From contig CALWKF010000004.1 in assembly GCA_944381215.1 (NCBI GenBank), forward strand, positions 24,657 to 88,656: DNA of 64,000 nucleotides. Reading direction: 5' to 3'. Below, in pieces: positions 1,179 through 50,809 of this stretch. Both the position numbers and the translations under genes were made by a program. The stretch comes from an uncultured Clostridia bacterium. Its GTDB lineage: Bacteria > Bacillota > Clostridia > Christensenellales > UBA1242. The notes under the pieces were generated by a model. It was not told the origin of the DNA, did no database searches, and saw only the letters and a program-made list of their open reading frames with translations. The first letter of the stretch is position 1. Each line of letters opens with the position of its first letter.

Positions 1179-3887
1179 ATGAGTAAGAAAAATATGACCG
1201 TAGATGAAAACGGTGTGCAGATTAAGACCGTAGTAAAAAAGCGCGGTGGAGTCGGTGCCTTTTTTTGTGGCTTCTTTTTCTGCCTGTTTTTTATAATCGT
1301 GTCCGTTGTAGGCTTGGGGCTATATTGCTACTACAATGTAACACTGTCTAGCGTGGAGCGACTCTTAGGGGTAACTATCCCGCTCGAGGGTACGTATAAA
1401 GATTTGGCTCTAAAAGAATTGATTGCCGAAGGCGTCGCTTATCGCGATATCTCCTTATCAGGACTCGAGGAAATTGGCGTGGAATTGCCCGAAAAAATTC
1501 CAGGGACGGAGATTCAACTCACCCCACTATATACCTCAACAATCGACTTTAACGGCGAAAATGTCGCAGTGAACCAAATTCGCATTATCGACATCGCAAA
1601 CGGCCTCGATGAGTTTGTTTCGGCGATTTTGCCCGTGATGTACGGCTACACGACCGTGCAACAAGTGCTCGACACCGCGCAAGTAACTTTACCTACTGAT
1701 TTAGGTTACCCAGCACTTACCGAGCCATATTACAACATTGGCACGGCGGAGCAACCGAGACTCGCGACCCTTGGCGAGCTCACGATTTCCCAAGCACTCG
1801 ACATCTTGCCCCAGCATTACAGCACGGAAAACCTCACTGTTCAAGAGGCTGTGAACGCACTAGGCCTTAGCATCCTCGACGTAGAGGAGGGTGAGGAGGA
1901 TGTCTACGCAGACTTGCGTAGTCTCGCAATCACCTCGATTACTACCGACCTACTGCTTGACAGCGTGGACGGCGCATTTTTAAACAATCTAATCGACCTT
2001 AGCGATTTCCCTTTTGCAACTTCGCCCGAGTTTAACTCGACAAAATTAAGTGGAATGCTCGACTACATTAGAGCTGTTCCCCTAGGCGAGATTATCACGA
2101 TTCCCGAAACCACTCCCGACAGCACCGCGACCGACCGCTTGCTTTCCGCCCTGCGCACCGTAACTTTTACCGATTTGAGTGAGGGCGACATCGTCGAAAA
2201 CATTACCGCAAAAATTGACAAGAACGACCCCGACCTAACCTTAGGCGAGTTCTTGGGAATGGCAGAGAGTAGCAACCTGGCTTTCCTAAACGACATCAGT
2301 TTTACTGAGTTACTCCGCGACCCGAGCACGACCTTGACTGACACTCTAAACACGGTCTACATCGGCGACTTTCTAACTCTCGAGAGCGTAGTACCCGAGG
2401 ACTTTGCCACCACGAACCCCGAGTTCAGCGCAATTCCGCTCGACACTTCACTTAGTAACTTAAAGGCCACAATCGCAGGCCTCACAATCAACCAAATTTT
2501 CATCCCTTCAGAACTATCTTCCCTCGACCTAAGTGTTGAAGAACAGAACATGACCATGCTCGAACTTTTAACCAATCGTGCGGGCGCGACCCTAGGCAGT
2601 ATTCTTAATATCGACGCATCGCGCAGTGGCTACCTATTAGTACTCGCAAATTCGACGAGCGAAAACTTTACCGCAACCCTTGATTCGGCCTCGATTTACG
2701 ATCTTCTGGGTGCCGAAAACGGCCTTTCGACTGTCGCACGGCTTGCGGGCCTGAGTATGCAGGAAATTTCCGAGAGTGAGGACCTAGTTGGCTTGCTTTC
2801 CGAGAACTTTGGGACTTTAGGTGACTTATTAGGCGTAAGTGCTAGCGACGGCGGAATTTTGAGTATCATCGCAAACGTAACTTTTGACGACCTTCTCGGC
2901 GCAAACGCAGGCGACGCAGTCATGAATGCTCTGCGTGGTAGCCAAATGACCTTGGGCGAGATGCTCGAAGGGACCTTCGAGAACCCGATTATCGAGTCAG
3001 TTATGTCTATTGAGGTTGGTGCGCTCTTTGGCGATTCCCCCGAAGATGCCTTTATCACCGCGCTGTCTGGCAACACCTTAGGCGAACTCTTTAACATCAC
3101 CGACAACACTGGTCTAATGTCCTTTATTAAGAATGTGAGCATGGCAGACTTGCTCGGGCAGACCCCAGGCGTAACCCCTGCCGACGCGATTATGAACGCA
3201 ATCTGCGGGACCAATAACGAGGTAACCCTGGCGCAGTTCTTAGGTAGCACCGAAAGCGACGGAATTATGTCCATCATCCAAAACGTGAAAATGGCCGACC
3301 TGCTTAGACCCTCTGGGGACGCGACCGCAGGCGATGCGATTATGAATGCCCTCGCTGGTAGCAACATGACCTTGGGGAGTTTGTTAAACATCGAGAACCC
3401 GACTGGTATCACCGCAATCATTTCAAATTTAAATGTTGGCGACCTCTTTAATGGTAGCGCGAGCGCGACCGAGGCTTTCCAAGGCGTAGTAAACGACATT
3501 AAACTTATAGACGTTTTCCCGAACATCGCAACAGGCGAGGACAGCATTCTAAAAACAATTTACCAAAGCAACCCCGATATTAAAGTTGTAGACCTAGCAA
3601 GCAAAATTGAAGGCCTAACTCTTAAAGATGTTATCGGCGAACAGACTGGAATTTTCTGCCTAATCGACGAGAATAGTTACCAAACTACGAAACTGGGCAA
3701 TCTGTCTACCTTGAAGGCAAAGACCGAAATCAGCATTCAAGACTTGTATAGTGCTGGCGTAGTTACTGAGGGGCAGTTGTCGGAGTTAGAGAGTTTAGGC
3801 GTTGACCCAAGTAGTACGACATTCGCGACAATTATCAATGCCTACATCGACGACCTTCGCACCGCACAAGAGGCAGGCGGTAGTTAA
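1179..3887 (+). CDS. Large acidic membrane-anchored repeat protein, function unknown
   Basis: RBS AAGAAAGGGG precedes the ATG. There is an N-terminal TM helix (GAFFCGFFFCLFFIIVSVVGLGLYCYY). The C-terminal half has ~45-aa degenerate repeats (G-I/L-L/M-S-I-I-x-N-V-x-F/M-x-DLLG ... GDA-V/I-MNAL-x-G-x-M-TLG). All antisense ORFs inside it are composition artefacts. Confidence 0.8.
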   Translation: MSKKNMTVDENGVQIKTVVKKRGGVGAFFCGFFFCLFFIIVSVVGLGLYCYYNVTLSSVERLLGVTIPLEGTYKDLALKELIAEGVAYRDISLSGLEEIGVELPEKIPGTEIQLTPLYTSTIDFNGENVAVNQIRIIDIANGLDEFVSAILPVMYGYTTVQQVLDTAQVTLPTDLGYPALTEPYYNIGTAEQPRLATLGELTISQALDILPQHYSTENLTVQEAVNALGLSILDVEEGEEDVYADLRSLAITSITTDLLLDSVDGAFLNNLIDLSDFPFATSPEFNSTKLSGMLDYIRAVPLGEIITIPETTPDSTATDRLLSALRTVTFTDLSEGDIVENITAKIDKNDPDLTLGEFLGMAESSNLAFLNDISFTELLRDPSTTLTDTLNTVYIGDFLTLESVVPEDFATTNPEFSAIPLDTSLSNLKATIAGLTINQIFIPSELSSLDLSVEEQNMTMLELLTNRAGATLGSILNIDASRSGYLLVLANSTSENFTATLDSASIYDLLGAENGLSTVARLAGLSMQEISESEDLVGLLSENFGTLGDLLGVSASDGGILSIIANVTFDDLLGANAGDAVMNALRGSQMTLGEMLEGTFENPIIESVMSIEVGALFGDSPEDAFITALSGNTLGELFNITDNTGLMSFIKNVSMADLLGQTPGVTPADAIMNAICGTNNEVTLAQFLGSTESDGIMSIIQNVKMADLLRPSGDATAGDAIMNALAGSNMTLGSLLNIENPTGITAIISNLNVGDLFNGSASATEAFQGVVNDIKLIDVFPNIATGEDSILKTIYQSNPDIKVVDLASKIEGLTLKDVIGEQTGIFCLIDENSYQTTKLGNLSTLKAKTEISIQDLYSAGVVTEGQLSELESLGVDPSSTTFATIINAYIDDLRTAQEAGGS

Positions 3888-4249
3888 ATAGCCATAAAAT
3901 ATTAAAAATAAAAAACATCACTAAAATAATAACAAAATTAACTTACTAAAACTAATAAAAACGCAAAATTACCGAAATTTTAAAACTTAAAATTAATGTC
4001 AAAGCCTACTAGTTTGCCCTAATTTTGCCCGAAAAAAGAAAAAATATTGTGCAATATGCCCAATCGCTAATATTTAAGCAAAATTTGTATTACGAATTTG
4101 GTTAAAATCACTTTTAGCCGTTTAAAAGACTTGACCGAATATAATTATTTAGAAAAATAGCCTTAATTATTATGCTTAAAAAGTTGTAATAGTTACTATG
4201 TTTAAAGACGGAAGTTTGACCGAATTTGTTTTTACACAAGGAGAGTGTT

Positions 4250-5947
4250 ATGGAAGAAGAAAGAAAGATTGGTAGACCCAAATCAAAGGTTGCACCCGAG
4301 CCAAAGCGAGCAAGAGGCCGGCCTAGAAAGGCTGAGCCCGCCGAGCCCGAGGTGAAGCGTCCGCGTGGACGGCCGAAAAAGGAGACGGCTGAGCCTGTGT
4401 CCACCGAAAAGCGGGCAAGGGGTAGGCCTAGAAAGTATCCCCCGAAAGACGAAACTGCCGAAAAACGCCCGCGTGGCAGACCCAGAAAGAATGAGGTGAG
4501 GGCAACGACGGAACCCGAGGTTAAACGCCCGAGAGGACGGCCTAAAAAGGAGTTAATTACTGCTGATAAGGCTGTTTTGGAGGGCAATCACCCTTACACC
4601 GACATTCCTCAAAACCCCGTCGCCCCGATATCTCAGTACATCGAGATTCCAACAGCACCCGAGACCGTTCGGGAGGATGTGGACACTGCGGACAAGGCGG
4701 TTCTCGCTAACGGCCACCCGTATGCTGAGGTCGCGCCCGTGCCTAATGTAGACTGGGAGAACGTGGACCTTGACGACGTTTTTGAGGAAATCACCCCGAT
4801 TGAGAAGCCTTACCTCGATACCGAGGACGAGGTGCTCGAAAAGGGCGAGGCCTACAAGCGGTTAAAGGAGCGCGCCACCAGCATTATTGCCAGCAAAGAG
4901 CACGTAAAGCCCGCAAAGCACATGGCGGACAACCTCTTAAAAGACGACCGCCCGCTACCCCCGATTATCGCCACTCCGCCCTTGGCGAAAATGAACATCA
5001 GCACGCCAAAAACTCCCGTAAAAAAGGCCTCGAAGCCCGTGCCAAAGGTCATTTTAAAGGCGAACCCCATGCCGAACATGGTAATCGTTATCACGGGTGC
5101 CACCAGCGGAATGGGTTTTGCTATGGCTAAAAAACTCGCGGGCCTCGGGCACATCGTGATTGCTGTCGGCAGAAAACCAGGTCTCAGTCGCGATGCGCGG
5201 GACGAGATTTTGGACACGTACCCCGACGCAAACATTCACTACTTAATCGCCGATTTGAGCCTCATGAGTCAGGTGCGAATTTTGGCCGAAGAGATTCAGG
5301 AAAAGGTGTTCGAACTCGGGCGCGAGTGCGTCGACTGCATCATCCACAACGCCGCCGAGGACCTGGACGCGAGCAAACTCACCTACGAGAATCTCGAGTA
5401 CATGTGGGCGACAAACTACCTCTCTGTCGTACTGCTCACGAAACTAATTCAGCCTCTGCTCGATGCCTCGCGCAATGCAAAGGTAATCACGTTTACCACG
5501 CGCCGTGCCTCGCAGAGTGCAAAAATAAATTGGAGGTACCTGCGCGACCGCTCGGGCAAGTTTGCCTCAAAAATTTACGAGCAAACGAAACTCGCCGACC
5601 TTATGTTTGCGCTTGAATATGACCATCAACACGCCGACCGTGACGACATTCACGCATATTGTGTTGACCCGGGCAACGTCAACACGACCTTGCGCACGCG
5701 AAATGCTAGCGGAATTCGGCACTTCCACTTCGACTTTTGGCGTAAAAAAGGCAAGTCAATCGAGGACGGAATTAAGACAGCAGTTTATCTAGTGCTGTCG
5801 AAAAATCTTCCAACACACACGGTTTTATACCATGATATGCGTGCGGTGGAGCCTAGCAAGTTCGCGCTTGACCAGGAAAACCGCAAGGCACTTATGAAAG
5901 TTACCGAAATGGAACTTCGCGAAAACAACGAAATTAAAATTAAGTAA
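4250..5947 (+). CDS. AT-hook repeat protein fused to a short-chain dehydrogenase/reductase (SDR) domain
   Basis: ATG at 4250 follows AAGGAGAG. The N-terminus carries six GRP-core AT-hook-like motifs (IGRPKSK, RGRPRKA, RGRPKKE, RGRPRKY, RGRPRKN, RGRPKKE). The C-terminus has the SDR signatures TGATSGMG and YEQTK. Confidence 0.8.
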   Translation: MEEERKIGRPKSKVAPEPKRARGRPRKAEPAEPEVKRPRGRPKKETAEPVSTEKRARGRPRKYPPKDETAEKRPRGRPRKNEVRATTEPEVKRPRGRPKKELITADKAVLEGNHPYTDIPQNPVAPISQYIEIPTAPETVREDVDTADKAVLANGHPYAEVAPVPNVDWENVDLDDVFEEITPIEKPYLDTEDEVLEKGEAYKRLKERATSIIASKEHVKPAKHMADNLLKDDRPLPPIIATPPLAKMNISTPKTPVKKASKPVPKVILKANPMPNMVIVITGATSGMGFAMAKKLAGLGHIVIAVGRKPGLSRDARDEILDTYPDANIHYLIADLSLMSQVRILAEEIQEKVFELGRECVDCIIHNAAEDLDASKLTYENLEYMWATNYLSVVLLTKLIQPLLDASRNAKVITFTTRRASQSAKINWRYLRDRSGKFASKIYEQTKLADLMFALEYDHQHADRDDIHAYCVDPGNVNTTLRTRNASGIRHFHFDFWRKKGKSIEDGIKTAVYLVLSKNLPTHTVLYHDMRAVEPSKFALDQENRKALMKVTEMELRENNEIKIK

Positions 5948-7006: not shown

Positions 7007-7094
7007 TTAATTAAAATAAAGAATTATCAAAACTTTTTACTAAAAAAATATAATTAAACAAGTGAACTGCCTCTTGTCCTCTTAAAACACTACT

Positions 7095-7640
7095 CAACAA
7101 ACCATAAAGTTGTAGTAGAACAAAGCGGATGAGATTCTTCGTCTCAGGCTTCGAGGGGCGGGCTCAGAATGCCTTCCCGCTTGCGGGAAGTCTGGCGCGT
7201 GAATGATTGGTATAATTAGAAAAGTATGTTCTCGCGCCAGCCCAGTGCCTTATATTATACAAAATATGAACAACTACGCACTCTGAGTCGACCCGCGGTG
7301 CGTAGGTGCACATCCAATCTATTTAGGTCATCCTGAGTGTCGACCCGCGTAAGCCTTCAGACGAAGGATTTATTCCACTTAAAAAATGCTAAAAAACCAT
7401 AAAGTTGTAGTAGGATAAAGCGGATGAGATTCTTCGTCAAGGGGCTACGCGGGGCGGGCTCAGAATGACAGTTATTTAATTGGTTATTGTGAAAGCAGAA
7501 TAGAACGACTTCAAAATGCCTCTATAACTCAGCGCATATAAAAAGCAACAATAGGAACATTTAGCATGACGCTGCCCGGAGGATCTCATTCCTGCCGCTT
7601 AAATTAAACCCACCCCGCGTAAGCCTTCGTAACTCAGCAT
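7095..7640. repeat. Mosaic intergenic repeat locus R1 (several modules, both orientations)
   Basis: A-module GGATGAGATTCTTCGTCTCAGGCTTCGAGGGGCGGGCTCAGAATG lies at 7127-7171 and again at about 7420-7466, with an inverted copy at 7328-7376. CUUG hairpin at 7173-7190. Long hairpin CTGGCGCG(7192-7199)/CGCGCCAG(7233-7240). GGTGCGTAGGTGCAC at 7297-7311. Confidence 0.9.
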
Positions 7641-7681
7641 AAAAAAATAAAAAAGCCGTAGATTATTTAAAATCTAGTGGC
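7641..7681 (-). terminator. Terminator downstream of tRNA-Arg
   Basis: On the minus strand, hairpin GCCACTAGATT...AATCTACGGC is followed by TTTTTTATTTTTTT. Confidence 0.6.
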
Positions 7682-7684
7682 TAG

Positions 7685-7759
7685 TGGTACGCCCAGAGAG
7701 AATCGAACTCTCATTAAAAGCTCCGGAAACTTTCGTGTTATCCGTTACACTATGGGCGC
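7685..7759 (-). tRNA. tRNA-Arg (anticodon CCG)
   Basis: Reverse complement is GCGCCCA TA GTGT AACGGATA ACAC G AAAGT TTCCGGA GCTTT TAAT GAGAG TTCGATT CTCTC TGGGCGT A CCA. This gives a full cloverleaf with a TTCGATT T-loop and encoded CCA. Anticodon loop is TT-CCG-GA. Confidence 0.93.
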
Positions 7760-10278: not shown

Positions 10279-10415
10279 ATATATTGAAAGGAGAGAATGA
10301 ATTTATTGTTAACTCGGCTCTTTTTTTGCAATTTTTTATTAATTTTTGTTATTTTTCACATTTTTGTGCGTTTTTTTATTATTTTTTCGTGATTTTTTAT
10401 TATTTTTTGTGTTTT

Positions 10416-11885
10416 TTATAGTTTTTCGATGAGTTTGAGCCATTCTTGGTAGTTGTTTTCGCGCTTGATGTCGTGGGCGGTGGGGCGGTAAATTTTTGCG
10501 CTTTCGTAGAGGTTGTTTAGGTCGCGCATAGACTTAAACGCGCCGAAGCACAGCCCCGCCATATAGCACGCGCCGAGGCTAGTCGACTCGGTCACTTTGG
10601 ACACTGCCACAGGGAAGTGCATTATGTCGCTCTGGAATTGCATAAGTAGACTATTCTTGGTCATCCCGCCATCGACTCGCATTTGCTTTTCGCTCACGGG
10701 GAAACTTTCTTGCATACAGTCAAACACCGCACGAGTGTTGTAGGTAATGCCTCGCAACACCGCCCGCACAATGTGTGCCGAAGTTGACGCGAGCGTTATG
10801 CCCGCAAACTGTGCCCGAGCGTTACTCTTCCAAAAAGGCGCACCGAGGCCCGAAAGTGCTGGGATGAAGAACACTCCACCAGTGTCGGGGACACTGCCTG
10901 CTAACGTCTCGCTCTCGCCAGGGGAGTCGATGAGCTTAAACTGGTCTTGTAGCCAGTTGATACACGAGCCCGCCGAGTACATATTGCCCTCCAAGGCATA
11001 CGCAACACCCTCTTTTGTCCTCCAAGCCACGGTCGTGATTAGCTGGTCGTGTAGAATGGGGGTGCTACCTATGTTTGCCAGCATAAAGGCGCCCGTGCCA
11101 AAAGTGGTCTTGAAGTCGCCCTTGTTTATGCAGTTTTGCCCCAAAAGCGAGGCCTGCTGGTCGCCAATAAGCCCGCCGATTGATAACTTCTTGCCCGCAA
11201 TTACGCAATCGCCGATATACTCATCACAATTTACAATATTAGGGAGCGCATTCATAGGTACGCCGAAAAACTCGCACAGTTCGGGGTCCCAGTTTTGCGA
11301 TTTGAGGTTGTAGAGCAAGGTCCTGCTCGCGTTCGAATGGTCGGTGACAAATTTTGCGCCGTTTGTGAGGCAGAATATTAGGTAACTGTCGAGCGTGCCG
11401 AGGCAAAGCCTGCCATTTTCACTTGCTTTTTTCACGGCCTTTGAATTGTTCAACAGCCACGACATCTTGGTCGCGCTAAAATAAGGGTCGATGCGCAGGC
11501 CCGTGCGCTTGTGAATCATCGAGGCGGTGCGTTTATCTTTCTGCAACTCCTCGCAGTACTCAAAGGTGCGCCGACACTGCCACACGATCGCGCGCTCGTA
11601 GGGCTTGCCCGTTTCGCGGTCCCATGCAACGGTCGTCTCGCGCTGGTTCGTAATACCTACGCCGTAGATTTCCTCGGCATCTAGGTCCGCAATCGTACGC
11701 TTCAAGCACTCGACAATCGCCGCGACAATCTCGACTGCATCTTGCTCCACCCAGCCAGGGTGCGGGTAAAATTGGCTGATTTTCTTTTGAAAAATGTTGA
11801 ACTGCTCGTGCGCCACTACGTTATATGCAAGGGTGCGTACCGAAGTCGTGCCCATGTCTATGGCAATTATATATTTTTTGTCCAT
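10416..11885 (-). CDS. glpK: Glycerol kinase
   Basis: The 489-aa product aligns by eye along its length to FGGY-family glycerol kinases (IIAIDMGTTSVR..., GITNQRETTVAWD, WLLNN, GDQQASLLGQ, TFGTGAFM, GGMTKN). Confidence 0.95.
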   Translation of the reverse strand: MDKKYIIAIDMGTTSVRTLAYNVVAHEQFNIFQKKISQFYPHPGWVEQDAVEIVAAIVECLKRTIADLDAEEIYGVGITNQRETTVAWDRETGKPYERAIVWQCRRTFEYCEELQKDKRTASMIHKRTGLRIDPYFSATKMSWLLNNSKAVKKASENGRLCLGTLDSYLIFCLTNGAKFVTDHSNASRTLLYNLKSQNWDPELCEFFGVPMNALPNIVNCDEYIGDCVIAGKKLSIGGLIGDQQASLLGQNCINKGDFKTTFGTGAFMLANIGSTPILHDQLITTVAWRTKEGVAYALEGNMYSAGSCINWLQDQFKLIDSPGESETLAGSVPDTGGVFFIPALSGLGAPFWKSNARAQFAGITLASTSAHIVRAVLRGITYNTRAVFDCMQESFPVSEKQMRVDGGMTKNSLLMQFQSDIMHFPVAVSKVTESTSLGACYMAGLCFGAFKSMRDLNNLYESAKIYRPTAHDIKRENNYQEWLKLIEKL

Positions 11886-13440: not shown

Positions 13441-13830
13441 TTATAAAATATTGCGGTTAAATTTTAAAATAAATCGAAAAATTATAAAAAATCGCAAAAA
13501 ATCATAAAAAATAGCAAAAAAACGGTAAAAAACTCAAAAAATACGAAAAATAATAAAAAAATCATCGAAAAGTAAAAGCCTAAAAAATGCCCAAAAATTA
13601 TAAAATAATAGAATTTTTTATAAAAAATGCTCGATTTTTAGAGGAAAAATTTTAAGAATAGCAAAATAAAATTAAAAAAACAAAAATTTATCGAATAACA
13701 ACTAAAAATTATCGAAAAAACATTAAAAACGGCGAAAAATTGCGAAAAAACAGCAAAAATATTAAAAAAAGTGGTAAAAATAGAAAAAATGAGAGCGAAA
13801 ATCGCTCTCTCCAAACAGGACAAAATGTCC
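13441..13830. repeat. Phased A-tract array (about 10-bp period)
   Basis: From about 13471 to 13600, and again about 13711 to 13800, each consecutive 10-nt block ends in A4-A7 (aaatcgaaaa attataaaaa atcgcaaaaa atcataaaaa atagcaaaaa ...). Confidence 0.9.
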
Positions 13831-15179: not shown

Positions 15180-15237
15180 CGAAAAATCGTGAAAAAATGC
15201 GAAATTTTGCGTATTTTTTCGATATATTTAAATTACT

Positions 15238-15570
15238 TGCGGCTGGCGCGAGGACATACTTTTCTAATTGAAGTAATCACTTGCGCGCCAGACTTCCCGC
15301 AAGCGGAAAGGCATCCTGAGTGTCGACCCGCGTTAGCCCTTAGACAAAGGATCTCATCCCTGCCGCTTTTTTCTATTATTATTTACGGTTTGTTGGACAA
15401 AATTTTTTAGAGGATGGAATGAGATTCTTCGTCTCAGGCTCTGTAAGCAGGGCTCAGAATGACCAAGTGATTAGTATGGTTTGCTTACCGTGTGTGCGAC
15501 TTTGCACCGAGGGGCGGGCTCAGAATGACTAATATAAACCACTTTGGGCTAGCGTGCGTAGATTCTGTCT
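15238..15570. repeat. Mosaic intergenic repeat locus R2
   Basis: Composite copy (reverse orientation) at 15241-15366. A-module at 15414-15463. GTGTGCGACTTTGCACCGAGGGGCGGGCTCAGAATGAC at 15492-15529. Confidence 0.9.
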
Positions 15571-15645: not shown

Positions 15646-16449
15646 TTGTTAGCCCTATTTAAAAGGCGCAAAAAAACAAAAGGATACGAGGTGGACCGAG
15701 TGGACAAAGCAAAACCGAGTGTGTGGAAATGGTACGAAATTGTCTTTTTGTGCCTCAGTTTTGTGGTGCTAATTGTGTGCTTTTTCGTGGCGGAAAATAA
15801 GAATTATTTGGCACTAATCAGCTCGCTAACTACCGTTTTTTATGTCGCGACTGCGTCAAAAGGGCTATTTTGGTCGCCCTTTGCAAATGTTGTGTGTTTG
15901 GTGTTTTATGTCTGGGTGTCCGCAACCCAAGGTTTTTGGGGCGAGGTCATCCGCGACGGAGGTCTACTGTTACCCCTCGCGATTGTGGCGTGCTTTCGCT
16001 GGGTCAAAAATCGGGACAAGCACAACGACCAAATCGTGCGCGTACACGAGATAAAGTGGCAGGAATACCTAATTTCTTTTATCGTGTGCGCAGTGGGGGC
16101 TGTTGGTGTGTACTTTTTACTTGACTACCTCGGTACCAACCAAGTCATACTCAACACAATCACCTTTTCGCTCGCCGTGTTGGCAACCTATCTACTATAC
16201 CGACGTAGCCAGTGGTATGCGATTTTGTTTCTAGTGAATAATGTAGTTACAATTGTTTTGTGGGCGTTGACAATCGAGTCTGCGGGGCTTGAATACTTGT
16301 CTGTTATGGTGTCCTATGTAATCTTGTTTATTTTGAACCTTTACGGCCTCTTTGTTTGGTACCACAATGCCCGCACTCAGCACACCCAAGACACCGCCGA
16401 CCGCAAAGCCCGCTATGCTCGCGCCCTCAACTCTAAAAAAGACCAGTAG
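15646..16449 (+). CDS. pnuC: Probable PnuC-type nicotinamide riboside transporter (start uncertain)
   Basis: Polytopic membrane protein of PnuC size. It has W/N-rich helices (WYAILFLVNNVVTIVLW, LYGLFVWYHN) typical of PnuC. The ORF-track start is TTG, and an alternative GTG lies about 45 nt downstream. Confidence 0.5.
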   Translation: MLALFKRRKKTKGYEVDRVDKAKPSVWKWYEIVFLCLSFVVLIVCFFVAENKNYLALISSLTTVFYVATASKGLFWSPFANVVCLVFYVWVSATQGFWGEVIRDGGLLLPLAIVACFRWVKNRDKHNDQIVRVHEIKWQEYLISFIVCAVGAVGVYFLLDYLGTNQVILNTITFSLAVLATYLLYRRSQWYAILFLVNNVVTIVLWALTIESAGLEYLSVMVSYVILFILNLYGLFVWYHNARTQHTQDTADRKARYARALNSKKDQ

Positions 16450-19940: not shown

Positions 19941-20122
19941 CATTTAAGACAAGACTTGAAATTGAAATTTTAATAAAAGCGTATGGCTTAGCAAACGATT
20001 AGTAAATTTATCGGGAGTGCGCCTACGCACCTCATTTAAGACAAGACTTGAAATTGAAATTTTAATAGAAGTGCATGGCTTAACAAACGATTAGTAAATT
20101 TATCGGGAGTGCGCCTACGCAC
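19941..20122. repeat. Tandem direct repeat, two 92-bp units
   Basis: Units 19941-20032 and 20033-20122 differ at 4 positions by hand count. Each ends in the hairpin GTGCG-CCTA-CGCAC. The second ends 3 nt before the RBS of the 20137 gene. Confidence 0.9.
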
Positions 20123-20136: not shown

Positions 20137-20556
20137 ATGGTTTGGAGTGAAATTGCATTGATTTGCGTGGGTGCCGTGCTGGTAATCGTGGCGCTTGCGT
20201 GGATAATTACCGCCGTTCGCAGGCGCAACAAGGAAAAAGAGTACCAAGTCGATGGCGTAAAAATCATCGATGGAGTGCGCTACACCCGTTCAAACGATGT
20301 TGTGGATGAGCGCGGGAACGTAAAAATTAGCCTTAACAAAGGCGACCACATTTTGGAGCGCGGAAGGGAGTACTTGGTTTCAAAGTCTGGCGACTTGTTA
20401 CCTGGAAAGTACACTATTCTTTCCGCTGACGAAAACACTAAGAATATAAACATCCGTATCGGCGGGCTGGTGCGCGAGTACGAGCATTTTTCTTCGGTCG
20501 TTTTGAGCGAAGGCGACCACATCTCGCCCGTGTCCAACAGCATTGTCCTACGTTAA
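20137..20556 (+). CDS. Hypothetical membrane-anchored protein
   Basis: RBS AAGGAGGAG precedes the ATG. There is an N-terminal TM helix and a soluble domain of unknown family. Confidence 0.65.
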   Translation: MVWSEIALICVGAVLVIVALAWIITAVRRRNKEKEYQVDGVKIIDGVRYTRSNDVVDERGNVKISLNKGDHILERGREYLVSKSGDLLPGKYTILSADENTKNINIRIGGLVREYEHFSSVVLSEGDHISPVSNSIVLR

Positions 20557-21120: not shown

Positions 21121-21310
21121 GGGCTGGCGAGGTGTGTGAGTGCACACACGATAATTAATGTATAGCCGTAATTTTTAAAGGCCATAGGGCTGGCGCGAGA
21201 GCATTTGTTTCTAATTGTGGTAATCATTCGTGCGCCAGACTTCCCGCAAGCGGGAAGGCATCCTGAGCCCGCCCCGCGAAGCCTTTAGACGAAGGATCTC
21301 ATTCCTGCCT
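21121..21310. repeat. Mosaic intergenic repeat locus R3
   Basis: GTGTGTGAGTGCACACACGATAATTAA at 21132-21158 (compare 58801-58830). Composite copy (reverse orientation) at 21188-21310. Confidence 0.9.
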
Positions 21311-21322
21311 CTCAAAACAAAA

Positions 21323-21349
21323 AACACTAGTCTTGATTAGACTAGTGTT
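21323..21349. terminator. Conserved hairpin AACACTAGTCT-TGATT-AGACTAGTGTT (terminator-like)
   Basis: An 11-bp stem between convergent genes. Near-identical hairpins occur at 30547-30574 and 43509-43537. Confidence 0.6.
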
Positions 21350-21494
21350 TATAATATACTAGAAAAAAGTTTTTTATTAGTGGCTTTTTGGGGTGCTGTG
21401 CAACAATCAGTATGTCTGCCTTTAATAAAAATTAGAATTTTTAATTAATTTTTATGATTTTTTCATATTTATTTGCAATTTTTCTATATTTATT

Positions 21495-22559
21495 TTAGTC
21501 TTTTTGCTTTTCGTTGTATTTGCAAATGCCGAAGTTATCGGTGGTTACGTAGCCACTGGGTGCAGCGATTACGTCGGGAATGCGGTTTACAATAGTAGCG
21601 CAAGTCAATTCAACAGTGTTCGGGCGACTTACAACTACCGTGGTATTAGGCTCGCCGAAAATAGTCCACTCGTTCTTGTCGAAGTCCTCGGGCCCGTAAA
21701 CTTTTCCGATACACTCGGCCTCAATTTCGATGCCTTCGGCGGTTTGGGTGGTAACGACTGCGCTCATACCTGTTGCGTTTCCGCTAGGAATGGTCATGTT
21801 GAGGGTGCTACTGTTTAGGTCGCCCTCGTGGGTCATCGGCACGCACTTTTGAGTCTGTGAAACGACAGTCAAGCCCAATTTGCTAGCCAACCAGCCGTTC
21901 ACATTCCACATGTAACTGGGCGCATACTTTCCACTTTCGATAATCTTTTGACGCTCTTCGGCAGAAATTTTGTCGGCAGAAGCGACTTGCTCGTCAAATT
22001 CTTTAAGATTTAGCCCAGCACCGTGCGCCCTTGCCAGCGCGATGCCGTAGTCCTCAACGTTGTAACTACTGCTACCTTTAATTTTTGTGATTTTGTGGGT
22101 AACGCCCGCGATAGTTGTAATCAAGTTGCCCCAGAAAACGTCCTGGTAACCAGCGCCAGTGATTGTACAGCCGTTCTTTTTAGCGGCCTCGTCGATTTGT
22201 TTAAATAGATTTGGGTTACTGTTTTGAGGGAAGAAGGCCTCTTCACAGGTGGTGATTGCGTTCACACCCGCATTAGCGCACGCCAGCAGAGGCTCTGCAC
22301 AGTCCGCGAGCAAACTCATTGTGGTAACGATTGCTACATCAGGAGCGATTGCTTTGAGTCTTGCCACCATGTCCTGATTTGCCGACTCAATTGCGACACC
22401 GAGTTTGCCGACCCCAGCGAACTCGCCAGCATCGGTACCAAACTTGCTCTCGTCAATGTCGAAAGCCCCGACACATTCCATACCACGCTCAATGCAGTAC
22501 CTGATTGTGTATTTTGCCATTTTTCCGCAACCATATTGCACGAATTTAATTTTTGCCAT
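21495..22559 (-). CDS. NAD(P)-dependent amine dehydrogenase / DapB-N-like oxidoreductase (2,4-diaminopentanoate dehydrogenase-like)
   Basis: The N-terminus MAKIKFVQYGCGKMAKYTIRYCIERGMECVGAFDID has a Rossmann pattern like that family. Length is 354 aa and a good RBS is present. Confidence 0.5.
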   Translation of the reverse strand: MAKIKFVQYGCGKMAKYTIRYCIERGMECVGAFDIDESKFGTDAGEFAGVGKLGVAIESANQDMVARLKAIAPDVAIVTTMSLLADCAEPLLACANAGVNAITTCEEAFFPQNSNPNLFKQIDEAAKKNGCTITGAGYQDVFWGNLITTIAGVTHKITKIKGSSSYNVEDYGIALARAHGAGLNLKEFDEQVASADKISAEERQKIIESGKYAPSYMWNVNGWLASKLGLTVVSQTQKCVPMTHEGDLNSSTLNMTIPSGNATGMSAVVTTQTAEGIEIEAECIGKVYGPEDFDKNEWTIFGEPNTTVVVSRPNTVELTCATIVNRIPDVIAAPSGYVTTDNFGICKYNEKQKD

Positions 22560-23153: not shown

Positions 23154-23989
23154 AATGGTGGTATTTTTTGTCTATAGGCGTGCTGATTGTGGACCTAGTC
23201 AGCAAGGCACTCCTCGACGGCGAAACAATCGAAGTAATAAACGGTTTTTTCGGCTTCGTGTCCGTGCATAATACGGGCGCGAGTTTCGGCGTTTTCGCGG
23301 GCGCGCAAACCTTTTTTATAATTATTAGCATACTTTTCGCACTTGGAATGATGGCGTTCGATATTTTTTATAAAAAGGGCTTCGGCGCAAACGGCTGGTA
23401 CCGCGTGGGCTTTACGCTAATTCTTGGCGGGCTACTAGGTAACCTCATTGACCGAATTGCATTTGGCTATGTGCGCGACTTTGTACATCTTGAGTTCATA
23501 GACTTTCCCGTGTTTAATGTCGCCGACATCGCACTCACAATCGGCTGTATATGTATTATTGTCTTCTTAATCTTCTTTTTTAAAACCGACATCGATAAAA
23601 AAGTCGTGATAAAAAGTAGCACGGCAACCCCCGAAATTACTAATATATCTCAAATAAACGATCCCACGTCCTCAAATTCCCAAAACCACGAAAAGGATAC
23701 GAGTATCAAGGAATTAGAAGACATAAATTCACAAGATATAAAAAATACTAATTCACAAAATGCAAAAGCCACTGACAACATAAACGCAGAAAACAAAGCA
23801 AGCATTGAAAAGTTAAATGCGGGAAACAAGGCAGACACCGAAAATGACCCTACTTTACCAAACAGCAAAAAGTCTAAAAATAAAGCAAATGACCAAAATC
23901 AAAATACCAAAAATGAAATAAAGACAAAAAACGACGAAAATTCACAAAAAACCACAAAAAATCGTAAAAAAACGAAAATTAAAGGATAA
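23144..23989 (+). CDS. lspA: Lipoprotein signal peptidase II with a ~130-aa low-complexity N/K/S-rich C-terminal extension
   Basis: LspA core motifs are present (NTGASFG, FGYVRDF, FNVADI). The tail from about residue 150 is encoded by A-rich sequence. The gene abuts rluD. Confidence 0.85.
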   Translation: MQIKWWYFLSIGVLIVDLVSKALLDGETIEVINGFFGFVSVHNTGASFGVFAGAQTFFIIISILFALGMMAFDIFYKKGFGANGWYRVGFTLILGGLLGNLIDRIAFGYVRDFVHLEFIDFPVFNVADIALTIGCICIIVFLIFFFKTDIDKKVVIKSSTATPEITNISQINDPTSSNSQNHEKDTSIKELEDINSQDIKNTNSQNAKATDNINAENKASIEKLNAGNKADTENDPTLPNSKKSKNKANDQNQNTKNEIKTKNDENSQKTTKNRKKTKIKG

Positions 23990-23992
23990 AAA

Positions 23993-24916
23993 ATGCAAAA
24001 AATAGAAATCACTCCCGAAAATGTGGGGGTCAGGCTCGATATGTTCTTGACCGAAATCGAGCCCGAACTCTCGCGTAGCAACATTAAAAACTTGATTACA
24101 AAGGGCATAGTTTTGGTGGGTAACGAGCAGAAAAAAGCGGGATACTCGCTAAAATTGGGGGATATAGTGACATATTCTATCCCCGAACCTGTAAAAGTCA
24201 ACGTATGTCCGCAATGCATCCCTATTGACATCGTTTACGAAGATAAGGACCTAGCCGTTATCAACAAGCCCCAGGGTCTCGCCGTGCACCCAAGTGCTGG
24301 GCACGAGGACCACACTTTGGTAAACGCACTACTTTTTCACTTCAAGGACCTCTCGGGAATAAATGGCGAGTTGCGCCCAGGAATTGTGCACCGCCTTGAC
24401 AAGGACACCTCGGGGTTGATGCTGGTCGCAAAAAACGACTTTGCGCATCGAGGCTTAGCTGAACAAATTGCAAACAAGACTTGTGTCCGCAGATACTATG
24501 CACTCCTCGAGGGAAGGCTAAAAGAGGGCGGACATATTGAAACCTATATCGCCCGCGACCCGCATCACCGCAAAAAAATGGCCGTGTCTCACGACCCAAA
24601 CGACCGCCTCGCAATCACTGATTATAAAATTATTCGCCTTTTTGAAAAGTACACTTTTGCGGAATTTCAATTAAAAACGGGGCGCACTCACCAAATTCGT
24701 GTGCACGCGCAGTATTTAGGCCACCCAGTTGTTGGCGACGTCGCGTACGGGTATAAAAAGCAAGAGTTCAAACTCAACGGCCAACTGCTTCACTCGCACT
24801 ATATCGAATTTACGCATCCAAGGACTCAAGAGCGACTAAATTTTGAGGCCCCACTGCCTGAATATTTTCAGCACGTTCTCGACATCCTAGAAGCGCGCGA
24901 AAAGGGCAAAATTTAA
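23993..24916 (+). CDS. rluD: RluA/RluD-family 23S rRNA pseudouridine synthase
   Basis: S4-like N-terminus, catalytic HRLDKDTSGL, and the GRTHQIRVH motif. Confidence 0.9.
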   Translation: MQKIEITPENVGVRLDMFLTEIEPELSRSNIKNLITKGIVLVGNEQKKAGYSLKLGDIVTYSIPEPVKVNVCPQCIPIDIVYEDKDLAVINKPQGLAVHPSAGHEDHTLVNALLFHFKDLSGINGELRPGIVHRLDKDTSGLMLVAKNDFAHRGLAEQIANKTCVRRYYALLEGRLKEGGHIETYIARDPHHRKKMAVSHDPNDRLAITDYKIIRLFEKYTFAEFQLKTGRTHQIRVHAQYLGHPVVGDVAYGYKKQEFKLNGQLLHSHYIEFTHPRTQERLNFEAPLPEYFQHVLDILEAREKGKI

Positions 24917-26738: not shown

Positions 26739-26926
26739 CTACTAAAATAAAAAATAAATATTGAATAAATAATTTAATCAAATTAATTTATAATAAAAGT
26801 ATAATAAATAATTAAAAATTGCAAAAAATATATTAAAAATAATAAAAAAATCGCAAAAAACACAAAAAATAAATAAAAAATAATAAAAATTGTGTAAAGT
26901 CTAGGCATTTGGTAATAATTATAAGT

Positions 26927-27911: not shown

Positions 27912-28355
27912 TTATTTTGCTTTAATTATAGCATAATTACGATACTTTTTTATCAACTTCGCAAAAATAGTGCGCTCTAGACAAAAGCCTACAACAAATG
28001 CTAAAATAAGATACGCTCGCACCTCGCCATAGTTTAGCCAAAGCATATTTAGGTAAATAATTGCCCCACAGATTAGTACTATTAGGGCAGTTTTTAAGAC
28101 CGAAAAAACGGGCGAGTTTAGGTTGAAACTTCTAGGCTTTTTTGTTTTCTTTTCAAGCCTAACTGGCGTCAAAAATTCAATTTTTGCTGATTTTTTTGAT
28201 ATTTTTTCGCATTTTTTATCAATTTTCTTTAATTTTTTACTATTTTTTAGCCATTTTGGGAAAACCGAAAAAAGCCTAAATAGAAGCGCGCATAATATTC
28301 CAATGTCTAAAAATATCAAAAACAGCCACCCCTGGCCCAAGGTCGTAAACAACAT
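27912..28355 (-). CDS. yabQ: Spore cortex protein YabQ with a Lys-rich insertion
   Basis: Position is immediately after yabP (TAATG overlap). TM helices are present. The central K-rich segment KNSKKLKKIDKKCEKISKKSAKI is encoded by A-tract-type sequence. Confidence 0.6.
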   Translation of the reverse strand: MLFTTLGQGWLFLIFLDIGILCALLFRLFSVFPKWLKNSKKLKKIDKKCEKISKKSAKIEFLTPVRLEKKTKKPRSFNLNSPVFSVLKTALIVLICGAIIYLNMLWLNYGEVRAYLILAFVVGFCLERTIFAKLIKKYRNYAIIKAK

Positions 28356-30165: not shown

Positions 30166-30334
30166 TTCATACCTCCCAAACAAGCAAAACCCAAAACTTG
30201 TTTTAAAAAGTATACAAAATAGTCGCAAATTTGTAAAGTAATTTAATTTGTAAACAGAAAATTAATTAAAAAATCGCAAAAAATTAACTTAAAATTCAAA
30301 AGTTAGTAAAACTAGCCTCAATTTAATATAAAAA

Positions 30335-30574
30335 GGAATGGGATCCTTCGTCTCAGGCTTCGCGGGTCGGCACTCAGGATGACCAAGTAATTTTAATTAG
30401 TATTTTAACGAAACACAACTACACATACTATTTTGTTGTTAGTACGGCTACGCTTTAATTATAGTGTATGCGACTTCGCACCGCGGGTCGAGGCTCATTT
30501 TAAGACGAAGAATCTATTCCTCTAAAAACAAACATATTAAAGAAAAAACACTAGCTTAGATTAGGCTAGTGTTT
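30335..30574. repeat. Mosaic intergenic repeat locus R4 (includes the conserved AACACTAG hairpin at 30547-30574)
   Basis: A-module at 30335-30384. Chimeric copy GTGTATGCGACTTCGCACCGCGGGTCGAGGCTCATTTTAAGACGAAGAATCTATTCC at 30464-30522. Confidence 0.9.
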
Positions 30575-30636: not shown

Positions 30637-32331
30637 TTAACCTATTTCATCATCTACGTTGTTAGTGGTGGAGTTGGTTTGGGAGTCGGTGGGAGTGGGG
30701 GCGAAAACGGCGGTTAAGATTTTGCCCTCAACAAGGTTGTAAGGGATGTCTGCACTGCTTCCGTACTGAGATAGGTCGGTGTCGTCGTTGGTTTCCCAGC
30801 GGACAAAGTAATAGCCCGATGTGGCCACTGCGCTCACGTGAATGGTGGTTAAATTTTCCGTGGTCGTGTACCCAGTTATTCGCGCTTCGCCCACCGCCTC
30901 GAGGTTACTCCCATTCCCACCACTCACTTGCAACGCAACGCCCTCCAAATTCACCCCACCACTGCTAGGGGTGTAACTTTGGGCGATGCCCACAAATATC
31001 AAATTAATGGTAACATCGGCTTGAATATTGAAAATTTCGAGGTGTAGTTGCGAGCCTGTGGTGTTTGTTAGGTATGTAATTCCTAGGCAACTGCTGTCCA
31101 CCCCTAGCGCGCCGTTGATACTCTCGAGCCTTTGCTCTGCGCCACCATTTAACTGAATCGCATAAATATATCGATTTGAATTAAATGTTAAGGTATATCG
31201 GGTGGAAAGGTTGAGCCTTTCGGTACTAGTGCTAGCAATTTCGGAGCCACTTGTATTCGATGTTATTGTAATTTGTGGCAACCTAAAATACGCAGTATAA
31301 GTCTCGCTCCCAGTTACCGCAAAGGTATACGGGTTCTCATAAAATCTATTTCCGCTACTATCTTGCCAATAATCAAAAATGTACCCGTTTATCGCCGTGG
31401 CTGAAATCGTGGTGTTACCCGAATAACTTGTGTCATATTCACCACCGCCGCTAACCGAACCCTGACTGGCATCACTGGTCTCTACACTTATTGATGTAGT
31501 AGCATTTTCAGCCAATGCCGACAACGATATATGACACGCAGGGCGCACGCCGTAGCTACTTACACTTGCTTCCTGTGAAGTAACAGAATTTGTGTTATCA
31601 AAACAAATTGCCCAAAGAGCAGTAATACCAGAAATTGTTTGTGTTGACCCAGAGCGTGTCCAACAGTTGTTAGTCAATGTTGTGCTAAACCCCCTATCAT
31701 TATTATCAAGCCCCCAAAAACTAAACAATTCATAAAAACTAGGAACCCAATAAATGTCCTCAACATCATCTGAAAAAGGTAACAGCCCCTTCTCACTGCT
31801 CACACCACTATAGGTATATTGCTCTTGCTGAGCTTCTTGGTATTGTGAGCTTACTTCATAAGGGGTAACAATGATAGAATCCAAAACGGGATACTCTTGT
31901 AAATGAGCTTGAAATAAATCAATTGTTTCTTCTCGAATATATGAAGTTTGATAATCATTCATAATTCTTGACCAATGAAACATACTAGTTGTAAACGGCT
32001 CGGTCATCCAAGCGGTAATCGTGTCGCTGTCATTTGGGTCGCGATAAACCACTTGCCAATCATACCCAGCCATTGTAAACACAATTGGTGTGCCTTGGTC
32101 AAGTACACTAACTTGCCCTACGCGAGTGCCCAGTCTTTGAACAAGCGAATTATATGTATTTTTATCAACAAAAGTCCCACCTTCGTCAAAAATGTTCCCA
32201 ATACTTGTATAATTTGAATTAAGTATTGCACTCACTGGTTTGCGTGAAAAACTAATAAAAGAAAACAGACCGAAAAGAAGCAAAACAGTAACAAAAACCG
32301 CTACCGCAAAATTGATTTTTTTATTTATCAT
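30637..32331 (-). CDS. Secreted/cell-surface protein with InlB-B-repeat-like modules
   Basis: Signal-anchor (INFAVAVFVTVLLLFGLFSFISF). A domain ends in the SSYGVRPACHISL motif. Two ...GYxFxxW... modules are present (INGYIFDYWQDSSGN and TSGYYFVRWETNDD). Confidence 0.6.
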   Translation of the reverse strand: MINKKINFAVAVFVTVLLLFGLFSFISFSRKPVSAILNSNYTSIGNIFDEGGTFVDKNTYNSLVQRLGTRVGQVSVLDQGTPIVFTMAGYDWQVVYRDPNDSDTITAWMTEPFTTSMFHWSRIMNDYQTSYIREETIDLFQAHLQEYPVLDSIIVTPYEVSSQYQEAQQEQYTYSGVSSEKGLLPFSDDVEDIYWVPSFYELFSFWGLDNNDRGFSTTLTNNCWTRSGSTQTISGITALWAICFDNTNSVTSQEASVSSYGVRPACHISLSALAENATTSISVETSDASQGSVSGGGEYDTSYSGNTTISATAINGYIFDYWQDSSGNRFYENPYTFAVTGSETYTAYFRLPQITITSNTSGSEIASTSTERLNLSTRYTLTFNSNRYIYAIQLNGGAEQRLESINGALGVDSSCLGITYLTNTTGSQLHLEIFNIQADVTINLIFVGIAQSYTPSSGGVNLEGVALQVSGGNGSNLEAVGEARITGYTTTENLTTIHVSAVATSGYYFVRWETNDDTDLSQYGSSADIPYNLVEGKILTAVFAPTPTDSQTNSTTNNVDDEIG

Positions 32332-32478
32332 ACCTACGCTCCCCATACCCCTACTTATTTTTTAGTAAAATATTTCTAAACACACTATAATTATATAAAA
32401 ATTTACTAAAAGTGTCAAACAATAGTAATAATTTTCTAAAATTTTCTTAACCTTATATAATAAAAAAGCGAGGTGCGT

Positions 32479-43508: not shown

Positions 43509-43602
43509 AAACACTAGTCTATATTAGGCTAGTGTTTTTGTTTAAGAGGCAGGAATGAGATTCTTCGTCTCAGGCTTACGCGGGTCGAGGCTCAGAATGA
43601 CC
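43509..43602. repeat. Mosaic repeat locus R5: conserved hairpin plus A-module
   Basis: AACACTAG...CTAGTGTT hairpin at 43509-43537, then GAGGCAGGAATGAGATTCTTCGTCTCAGGCTTACGCGGGTCGAGGCTCAGAATGACC at 43547-43602. Confidence 0.9.
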
Positions 43603-43754
43603 AATTATTTTATTGCTATAGAGAAAGTGGAATGGGTCAGGTTTTAAGTGATTGTTTGTGTTTGTTTATTTTGGTCAAAAAACGCTGTTGAATAGGAGAT
43701 TTTCTTTGATTTTTGGTTAGTTTTGTGTTATGATTAAATAATCAAGGAGGGGCG

Positions 43755-50807: not shown

Positions 50808-50809
50808 AA

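Follow-up and report, generated by a model that had tools for sequence, protein, structure and literature searches.

Introduction

In Escherichia coli, bacterial interspersed mosaic elements (BIMEs) pair Y-type with Z-type repetitive extragenic palindromic (REP) units and bind IHF, DNA gyrase or DNA polymerase I. BIMEs are extragenic, and their regularly spaced REP units stand in alternating orientation together with conserved accessory motifs (PMC2817692). The CGTC/TGTC superfamily of REPs defined by Di Nocera et al. in 2013, which includes dRS3 of Neisseria and RPE-4 and RPE-6 of Rickettsia, is recognised by an unpaired CGTC tag (TGTC or CCTC being accepted), A-T residues at the first two positions of the stem, an unpaired tail of 3 nt with the consensus CCA at the untagged end, and no associated transposase (PMC3733652). 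Its members have stems of 8-9 bp and loops of 4-5 nt, occur mostly as dimers with the tags outside, dimers with the tags inside (TT) and clusters being rare, and were reported from five phyla, Bacillota not among them; intragenic CGTC-1 copies encode the peptides VIPAKAGI and IPAFAGMT (PMC3733652). Here we analysed 64,000 nucleotides from an uncultured Clostridia bacterium of the Christensenellales (GenBank assembly GCA_944381215.1, contig CALWKF010000004.1, positions 24,657 to 88,656 of the forward strand; this whole stretch is hereafter called the window) and describe the modular repeats found between its genes.

These repeats form a new, recombinationally very active family of the REP/BIME type in a clostridial lineage, which is neither a MITE (miniature inverted-repeat transposable element) nor a known RNA family. 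Its members are probably short, non-coding, hairpin-forming DNA units that are not self-mobile and have as their core a derived hairpin of the CGTC/TGTC type. REP/BIME mosaic repeats are known as a kind, and the foot of the hairpin fits the published superfamily. What is new is the family itself, its host phylum, the expanded interior of the hairpin, a composite unit, strict pairing of two unit types in a CGTC-type family, and a series of alleles at the same loci.

Results and Discussion

Host and samples compared

The window is ordinary bacterial chromosome (about 43% G+C, with AT-rich spacers) with housekeeping and sporulation genes, including YabQ, YqfD and YbeY; YabP and SepF are present in the gene calls of contigs that match it. 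The sporulation genes fit with placement in Bacillota, Clostridia, under which Christensenella is also classified. The closest relative in the genome collection was the metagenome-assembled genome (MAG) CASEHF01, deposited as 'uncultured Christensenella sp.', which is syntenic with the window at 72-82% nucleotide identity. Public assemblies from ENA and Logan match parts of the window at 99.95-100% identity, and because these assemblies reproduce the arrangement of the repeats, it is no assembly artefact.

The genome collection was scanned with the pattern of the F core described below, which gave 23 loci of CASEHF01, 9 loci of MAG CAVEBU01 (L002, L010, L012, L023, L027, L034, L037, L044 and L054; L numbers denote sequences fetched for comparison) and 22 loci of unrelated MAGs labelled Planctomycetota, Anaerolineales, Kryptoniota, Edwardsbacteria and others. 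Of the present genome 64 kb were inspected, and of CASEHF01 about 164 kb, in loci picked for containing repeats. CAVEBU01 was deposited as Alistipes finegoldii; its fetched contigs have 40.7% G+C, much lower than expected for that species, and share no synteny with the window, and its taxonomic label looks doubtful.

Seven intergenic loci share a set of GC-rich modules

Seven intergenic loci of the window carry a common small set of GC-rich modules. A preliminary description had listed six loci (7095-7640, 15238-15570, 21121-21349, 30335-30574, 43509-43602 and 58538-58831, here loci 1 to 6) and six modules; all of them are present where it placed them, but a seventh locus at 19941-20122 had been missed. 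The listed modules are likewise all real, but their division had to be revised. The A-module and the hairpins S and L mostly belong to one composite of about 130 nt, and two separately listed modules, the GTAGG-containing GGTGCGTAGGYGCAC and GTGTGCGACTTYGCACCG, are a single hairpin B in opposite orientations with different loops. GTAGG was found in the window family only within the loop of hairpin B, and motif D (GCACACACGATAATTAA) is the 3' extension of this hairpin.

Pattern searches with shuffled controls confirmed the modules. The A core was expected 0.00 times by chance, and two more A patterns gave 6 and 4 matches, each against 0.00 expected. The short hairpin S was found at 4 sites against 0.04 expected, the long hairpin L (CTGGCGCG-N33-CGCGCCAG) gave 3 exact matches against 0.00, and motif D 4 matches against 0.35. 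Blast coverage of the window against itself and the related loci restricted the repeated segments to the six loci and to about 20009-20030, and every copy in the window lies outside the listed open reading frames (ORFs) of at least 100 aa.

The commonest unit is the composite of about 130 nt, A-module plus hairpins S and L, here called LSA. A profile of this unit gave 80 matches, of which 20 were near-complete, 4 in the window and 16 in the fetched CASEHF01 loci, while a profile of the A-module gave 103 matches. The modules are therefore not confined to the window, many further copies being present in relatives. Copies are 80-93% identical between the window and CASEHF01, compared to 72-82% for orthologous DNA.

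The left part of the A-module, GTCATYCTGAG-(1-2 nt)-YCGMCCCKCG, is common to the A-module and the B-module and is termed the F core. A long form of the A-module has 63 nt in place of 11 nt between CCCGCG and CGAAG; fragments of it are present at 7519-7640, and intact copies in sister strains and in CASEHF01. A-modules are of two types, T-type (ATTCT/AGAAT) and C-type (ATCCT/AGGAT). The accessory motifs that recur beside A units are S, L, P, B/D, X (found in other strains, see below) and T, of which two had not been listed before: the P motif (AACCATAAAGTTGTAGTAG...), which sits 5' of two A-modules of locus 1, and the T module, a terminator-like hairpin AACACTAG-N11-CTAGTGTT followed by a T-run, with 3 copies in the window. 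The features of the seven loci are as follows.

7096-7257 (+): composite LSA unit, with P motif 7100-7126, T-type A-module 7123-7174, S 7173-7190 and L 7192-7240 (CTGGCGCG-N33-CGCGCCAG)
7282-7316 (+): F core remnant (CTGAGTCGACCCGCG), then hairpin B (GGTGCGTAGGTGCAC)
7325-7472: doublet with tags outside, forming one long hairpin; C-type A-module (-) 7325-7379, second P motif 7388-7418, T-type A-module (+) 7419-7470
7519-7640: fragments of the long-form A-module; 7519-7600 is the 3' part ending GGAGGATCTCATTCC, 7612-7640 an F core remnant with the start of the long insert
15225-15389 (-): composite LSA unit, with L 15243-15291, S 15293-15310 and C-type A-module 15309-15363
15413-15531 (+): T-type A-module with GTAAGCAG middle 15413-15465, then reversed B hairpin and F core 15488-15531
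19941-20122 (-): seventh locus, two units of 92 nt in tandem, 95% identical, both with hairpin B (GTGCGCCTACGCAC) at the end
21121-21160 (+): degenerate B hairpin and D motif (GCACACACGATAATTAA)
21171-21330 (-): composite LSA unit, with L about 21192-21240 (one G.T pair), S 21240-21257 and C-type A-module 21256-21308
21322-21350 (-): T module hairpin (21323-21349) and T-run, directly after the gene at 21495-22559 (-)
30332-30385 (+): C-type A-module
30455-30522 (-): rearranged unit, the 5' half of an A-module (30498-30522) joined to inverted F core, B hairpin and D motif (30455-30497)
30547-30573 (-): T module hairpin after the gene at 30637-32346 (-), not called by the terminator scan
43509-43537 (+): T module hairpin (43510-43536) and T-run, after the P-type ATPase gene at 40774-43428 (+)
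43549-43603 (+): T-type A-module
58539-58580 (+): F core (GTCATCCTGAGCCTCGACCCTCG) running into hairpin B (GGTGCGTAGGCGCAC)
58638-58799 (-): composite LSA unit, with L 58656-58704, S 58706-58723 and A-module 58722-58774, which has a mismatched C.A foot
58797-58831 (+): variant B hairpin (GGTGAGAAGTCGCAC) and D motif

The T modules always adjoin the 5' end of an A-module, and lie directly downstream of a gene on the strand that carries the hairpin and T-run. A terminator scan called two of the three, all but that at 30547-30573, on the same strand as the gene upstream. A near-identical 27-nt T hairpin with its T-run was thus observed 3' of three unrelated genes, where an intrinsic terminator is expected. 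The T module is absent from all fetched CASEHF01 loci. Since it stands 3' of three unrelated genes and each time beside an A-module, this terminator-like hairpin seems to travel with the family. At the seventh locus, the second hairpin B ends 1-2 nt before AAGGAGG, the ribosome-binding site of the gene at 20137-20556, and could therefore affect translation of that gene.

The ends of the A-module form a tagged, covarying hairpin foot

We aligned 70 A-modules from the window, CASEHF01 and CAVEBU01. Read on the GTCAT strand, their ends conform to (N)GTC-ATYCT-GA-G ... C-GA-AGRAT-CTN. This foot has a GTC tag, then a stem of 5 bp whose first pairs are A-T/T-A, an internal loop of 2x2 (G.A/A.G as read here) and a G:C pair. 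The Y/R position of the stem was C:G in 45 modules, T:A in 22 and mismatched in 3, and was thus matched in 67/70. Among distinct copies, this pair (19-54) was C:G in 45, U:A in 21 and otherwise in 3, its neighbours 17-56 and 18-55 were A:U in 69/69 and U:A in 68/69, and pair 24-49 beyond the internal loop was G:C in 61 and A:U in 5, with double changes. In the six-pair stem, 98.3% of cells were paired in the distinct rows, as compared to 17-50% when the partners were slid, and RNAalifold predicted the same foot stem unprompted. Hairpins S and L were 99.1% paired, with compensatory changes at 3 pairs. Each of the three genomes contains the Y/R pair in both of its states, and so do other phyla. 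Compensatory changes, by selection or by templating, thus keep three hairpins paired. The CAVEBU01 version of the element, CGTCATYCTGAG..CGACCCGCG.AAGCCTATATTCGAAGRATCTGTGAG with a small hairpin, had Y/R matched in 14/14 aligned copies.

After 5 bp, the 2x2 loop and 1-2 further pairs, the foot encloses 20-24 nt in the short form and about 75 nt in the long form. Strong folding was observed only in doublets such as 7325-7472, for which RNA parameters gave a minimum free energy of -68.1 kcal/mol (z -8.5) and DNA parameters one of -28.1 kcal/mol (z -5.1); a homologous doublet is present at L033 3976-4131. The tag in the window was GGTC in 4 modules, AGGC in 3, and TGTC and AGGT in 1 each. In CASEHF01 it was TGTC in 25, GGTC in 12, AGGC in 8 and AGTC in 2, and in CAVEBU01 CGTC in 13 and TGTC in 1. 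The 3-nt tail was CTC in 7/9 modules of the window, CTA in 40 and CCA in 7 of CASEHF01, and CTG in 14 of CAVEBU01.

Inverted pairs join two unit types

Clusters are the rule in the window and in CASEHF01, and when A-modules less than 260 nt apart were compared in these two genomes, each of the 17 inverted pairs consisted of one T-type and one C-type module (17/17; one C-type member was a C.A hybrid copy). Among tandem pairs, 5 were of the same type and 2 were mixed; a count of dimers by tag orientation gave 6 tandem pairs. The type frequencies are 35:18, from which random pairing would give about 45% mixed pairs. The observed 17/17 therefore departs widely from chance, also when it is considered that some composites share ancestry. 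The inverted pairs bracket 27-230 nt; 12 have the tags inside (TT) and 5 the tags outside (HH), and their arms are conserved while the spacers of about 80 nt are not. Chains such as that in L004 alternate in both type and orientation. With modules in both orientations, conserved accessory motifs and inverted pairs of two types, the architecture is indeed modular and REP/BIME-like, as had been proposed.

These pairings do not bear out a further proposal of the preliminary description, namely that the A-modules at 7127-7171 and 7328-7376 bracket a MITE-like element of about 250 bp. The first of these modules is part of an LSA unit, whereas the second is paired with the module at 7419-7470.

Clusters differ between strains at the same loci

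We assembled series of alleles from public contigs encoding exactly the same flanking proteins. Locus 1 had four alleles, with flanks 96-97% identical. The window form has 490 nt between 7088 and 7577, the alternative is a single L-S-A unit of about 118 nt (L057-L059, L061-L063), and two more forms carry an extra F core and a 32-nt spacer, the X module (L065, L066). The fragments at 7519-7640 form a junction common to all strain alleles of this locus. The cluster beside tRNA-Arg, described earlier as the densest, is so in this strain, but the sister strains have a single unit there. The X module is not present in the window and was found at two different loci, 1 and 6, in other strains.

Locus 3 had five alleles including the window form. 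In L068 and L069, the whole interior of the A-module between Y and R has been replaced, short by long, with identical flanks, and Y and R change together from C/G to T/A. L085 is a recombinant with a C.A foot, L089 a re-ordered form, and L086 an empty site of 116 nt with only a bidirectional terminator. Locus 6 had at least 5 length classes, the gaps between the flanking genes being 279, 463, 491, 551-553 and 611 nt. Here L077 is an empty site, L075 shows a deletion between two direct F cores, L076 a 60-nt deletion of an A-module, and L081 an added A unit with an X module. Similarly, the spacer at the seventh locus ranges from 93 to 648 nt in sister strains, and the CASEHF01 spacer orthologous to window 50809-50945 (136 nt) is a repeat patchwork of about 1.2 kb.

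Thus, clusters are very rapidly gained, lost, duplicated and deleted between direct repeats, and hairpin interiors are exchanged, within one species. Homologous recombination and gene conversion have left direct signs in the recombinant feet and in L075, where the deletion runs between direct F cores. Empty sites were found, at loci 3 and 6, but target-site duplications were not, either at the ends of units or at the junctions of filled and empty alleles.

Several public contigs (L056, L062, L063, L065, L070 and L095) start or stop inside repeat clusters; the repeats therefore fragment assemblies of this lineage. Spurious small ORFs are called on the repeats, for example a 75-aa ORF at L081 1337-1564.

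Comparison with described repeat systems

One close described system is the CGTC/TGTC superfamily. The present family shares with it a GTC-containing tag, A-T/T-A as the first two stem pairs and a conserved 3-nt tail, and no associated transposase is known in the published families or was found in the partial genomes inspected here. The canonical foot ATYCT-GA-G...C-GA-AGRAT and the CCA tail were found in MAGs of other phyla, where the F core is often followed by CGAAGRATC with R matching Y. A looser regular expression retrieved 32 tagged hairpins from the loci of these other MAGs, in which the first Y/R position was matched in 31/32 and the second in 32/32. Their interiors are clean GC hairpins of varied sequence, several of them within one locus of 6-8 kb; all but two bear a TGTC or CGTC tag, and many have the CCA tail. 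Canonical hairpins of the form TGTCATYCYGAG-(GC hairpin)-CGARGRATC are dense in L013 (5 in 5.7 kb), L046 (5), L015 (3) and L001 (3), several with a CCA tail and with two foot positions covarying. The class of tagged hairpins seems much wider than the five phyla listed in 2013. The repeats had been described as not recognisable as a known element; this exact family is in fact missing from both Rfam and the searchable literature, but its foot fits the CGTC/TGTC-tagged superfamily (PMC3733652).

By our own back-translation, VIPAKAGI and IPAFAGMT are consistent with a hairpin GTCATTCCC...GGGAATC. The stem of hairpin S, TTCCCGC/GCGGGAA (e.g. at 7173-7190), almost equals ATTCCCGC...GCGGGAAT, which, from back-translation of peptides such as VIPAKAGI, we take to be the stem of CGTC-1 REPs. 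The composite unit might therefore contain a second tagged REP, in degenerate form, in its hairpin S, a lead drawn from back-translation.

With the BIMEs of E. coli, the family has in common extragenic clusters of palindromic units in alternating orientation with other short conserved motifs between them, inverted pairs that join two unit types, and clusters that vary between close relatives. In contrast, the REPs of E. coli bear a GTAG tag and come with a REP-flanked gene for a REP-associated tyrosine transposase (RAYT), whereas the present units are tagged (N)GTC and the DNA inspected yielded no RAYT. The E. coli units are compact 35-nt palindromes of a proteobacterial host; the present ones consist of a conserved foot that encloses a long and mostly unpaired insert, and their host is a clostridial member of Bacillota. 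REPINs (REP doublets forming hairpins) of Pseudomonas are likewise two inverted REP-like units with a spacer that fold as a long hairpin, as at 7325-7472 here, and, like the present family, are vertically inherited, common to related species and more alike between copies than neutral DNA. However, each REPIN family has near-identical GTAG arms and a cognate single-copy RAYT, whereas the arms here are always of two types, mismatched at the covarying base, with no RAYT in the DNA inspected.

BOX elements of Streptococcus pneumoniae are modular intergenic repeats of Bacillota, like the present ones, with stable secondary structures, a variable number of modules and no known transposase. Their module order is fixed (A, repeated B, C), with one orientation per element, whereas in the present family the orientations are mixed and the foot is tagged and of the REP type; we know of no sequence similarity between the two. 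MITEs of the Correia type are also small, non-coding and intergenic, have inverted-repeat ends, are present or absent between strains and can carry terminators, but they end in matching terminal inverted repeats, are flanked by target-site duplications and derive from a parent insertion sequence (IS), none of which was found in the window or the fetched loci.

Search for a mobilising enzyme

No transposase had been noticed in the window, and a Pfam scan of 48 of its ORFs found none, nor any integrase or phage gene; the sole hint was a sub-threshold HTH_21 match at 47503-47868. Tblastn of the window and L001-L056 with queries for two Y1 transposases, IS608 TnpA and the RAYT of E. coli, had no hit under E = 0.2. 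In CASEHF01 and CAVEBU01, the 82 genes that lie up to 1.5 kb from repeats are housekeeping genes by Pfam, with no recurrent transposase family among the 25 of 85 Pfam families listed, so that one weak match may have escaped notice. The 5.4 kb past the right end of the window contain neither further repeats nor a transposase. Two ORFs between inverted units in L027 were considered as an autonomous element and rejected, being without a Pfam domain and resembling membrane or coiled-coil proteins.

The core pattern had one isolated match in IMG/VR, and a 22-mer of the composite unit had 0 matches in JGI metagenomes. Rfam, searched with the whole window at the gathering threshold, returned only tRNA-Arg(CCG) at 7685-7759 (-), and no other catalogued family; in 7050-7690 at E up to 10, the best matches were far below threshold. 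In the literature, 11-mers and 13-mers of the core matched only primers and vectors, and keywords for repeats of Christensenellaceae gave nothing relevant.

Interpretation

The family is best explained as REP/BIME-type DNA repeats whose core is derived from the CGTC/TGTC-type hairpin. In the clostridial lineage, the simple GC apex of that hairpin has been replaced by an insert of 20-24 nt or of about 75 nt, and the core unit is mostly fused to hairpins S and L and to the small motifs P, B/D, X and T. The units may spread in single-stranded form, as hairpins on which an enzyme encoded at another site acts in trans; by analogy with RAYT and IS200-type HUH nucleases, this enzyme would make its cut at the tagged foot. 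Much of the shuffling would be due to gene conversion and homologous recombination among copies. For the host, the units are presumably mostly neutral, except those that supply intrinsic terminators, as which the T modules probably act.

Several points weigh against this explanation. The stem of the window family is not one of 8-9 bp and its loop is 20-75 nt rather than 4-5 nt; tags-inside pairs outnumber tags-outside pairs (12 to 5) and clusters are the rule; the window tag is mostly GGTC, the first base of the tag in the family as a whole being mostly G or T. Since the A-T-first stem and the lack of a transposase in the DNA inspected agree with the superfamily, the tag and tail agree in part, and the stem, loop and dimer preference disagree, we regard the family as a derived variant and not a canonical member. 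Unlike canonical REPs, isolated A-modules do not exceed shuffled sequence in stability (z about 0 to +1.6), and the case for the hairpin therefore rests on covariation and not on energy. The covariation counts include copies related by descent and therefore overstate the number of independent events. Transposition is a step that we infer, and recombination, gene conversion and replication slippage alone could explain all the differences between strains. The Y1 query sequences may not be exact, and a transposase gene may lie outside the 64 kb and about 164 kb inspected.

A bolder version of this explanation takes the foot GTC-ATYCT-GA-G ... C-GA-AGRAT for the recognition and cleavage site of a cross-phylum, single-strand DNA recombination system that would excise and re-insert any interior the foot encloses. 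It would explain why the foot encloses a plain GC hairpin, a 20-nt or a 75-nt insert, the locus 3 swap between Y and R with identical flanks, and the complementarity of the foot pair across phyla. We consider it unlikely, as it draws on one clean swap, that at locus 3. If true, the allele series would be the first handle on the mobilisation of CGTC-type REPs.

Of the explanations that depart from REP/BIME-type DNA repeats, the one that survives best is that of structured RNA elements acting in the transcript, as stabilisers in 3' untranslated regions, terminators or small RNAs, and conserved for that function. Compensatory changes keep the three hairpins paired, which speaks for such a function, but both strands can form the stems and the pairing fits DNA hairpins equally, while isolated A-modules fold no better than shuffled sequence. 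All copies are intergenic, often just 3' of a gene, and 3/3 composites of the window that lie between co-directional genes would be read in the same sense; however, this orientation is 3:3 in CASEHF01 and 6:3 overall, which is not significant. The T modules do resemble intrinsic terminators of three different genes and hairpin B abuts a ribosome-binding site at 20123, yet Rfam has no match even at E up to 10, and in strains whose neighbouring proteins are identical the elements are missing or differ greatly as a set, which is hard to square with a needed function in cis. We therefore find an RNA family improbable.

Still less probable are classical MITEs, that is, IS deletion derivatives moved by cut-and-paste, with the inverted A-modules as terminal inverted repeats for a DDE transposase. 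Such elements would account for inverted pairs of A-modules that bracket 27-230 nt, for the folding of the doublet 7325-7472 as a long hairpin, and for sites filled in some strains and empty in others. Yet the two arms are always of different types, which leaves a mismatch at the covarying position, and single and tandem units are common. The strain comparison shows a patchwork and not one insertion: empty and filled alleles differ by sequence replacement instead of clean insertion, and target-site duplications were found neither at unit ends nor at filled/empty junctions. No transposase or parent IS was found in the window or near the fetched repeats of relatives.

That the clusters are debris of a decayed genomic island or prophage with the 3' side of tRNA-Arg as its target is scarcely credible: the largest cluster does lie 45 nt beyond the 3' end of tRNA-Arg(CCG), but the tRNA's own terminator stands between them, just one unit is present there in sister strains, housekeeping genes surround the other loci as well as those of CASEHF01, the scanned ORFs include no integrase or phage genes, no repeat involving the tRNA was found in the window, and the core pattern has only one isolated match in IMG/VR.

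Other features of the window

Tracts of A5-7/T5-7 phased at 10-11 bp, often 5-10 in a row, were observed beside gene starts and ends in most intergenic regions, for example at 10300-10440, 13446-13800, 23896-24001, 26783-26890, 28167-28260, 51000-51062 and 60010-60090. They are a signature of intrinsically bent DNA and are unrelated to the GC-rich repeats. The gene at 4226-5947 (+) encodes a short-chain dehydrogenase domain with a long N-terminal extension that gave a match to an AT-hook (E 2.7e-4, above the Pfam cut-off), a curiosity in view of the phased A-tracts of this genome.

A 285-nt tandem repeat (76% matches) at 48008-48547 corresponds to two adjacent paralogous 80-aa genes (-) and is not a non-coding repeat; judged by eye, the proteins look like small helix-turn-helix regulators. 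The large gene at 60197-63940 (-), which runs past the window and is 1322 aa in public calls, has DUF4011, AAA_11, AAA_12 and MTES_1575 restriction-endonuclease-like domains, which suggest a helicase-nuclease. Look-ups for the proteins at 1179-3887 and 15646-16449 found no database record.

Significance

REP/BIME repeats are best understood in proteobacteria, and their CGTC branch has been without a known mobilising enzyme since it was defined in 2013. The window adds a BIME-like mosaic in a clostridial gut lineage of Bacillota, a phylum not listed in the 2013 survey, and links the family, through its covarying foot, to hairpins of several other phyla. In practical terms, the repeats break short-read assemblies of this lineage, generate spurious small ORFs, and supply a terminator-like hairpin just 3' of at least two, probably three, genes. 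Since alleles at the same loci are available from strains about 97% identical, the dynamics of the family, and possibly its mechanism, are testable from population data.

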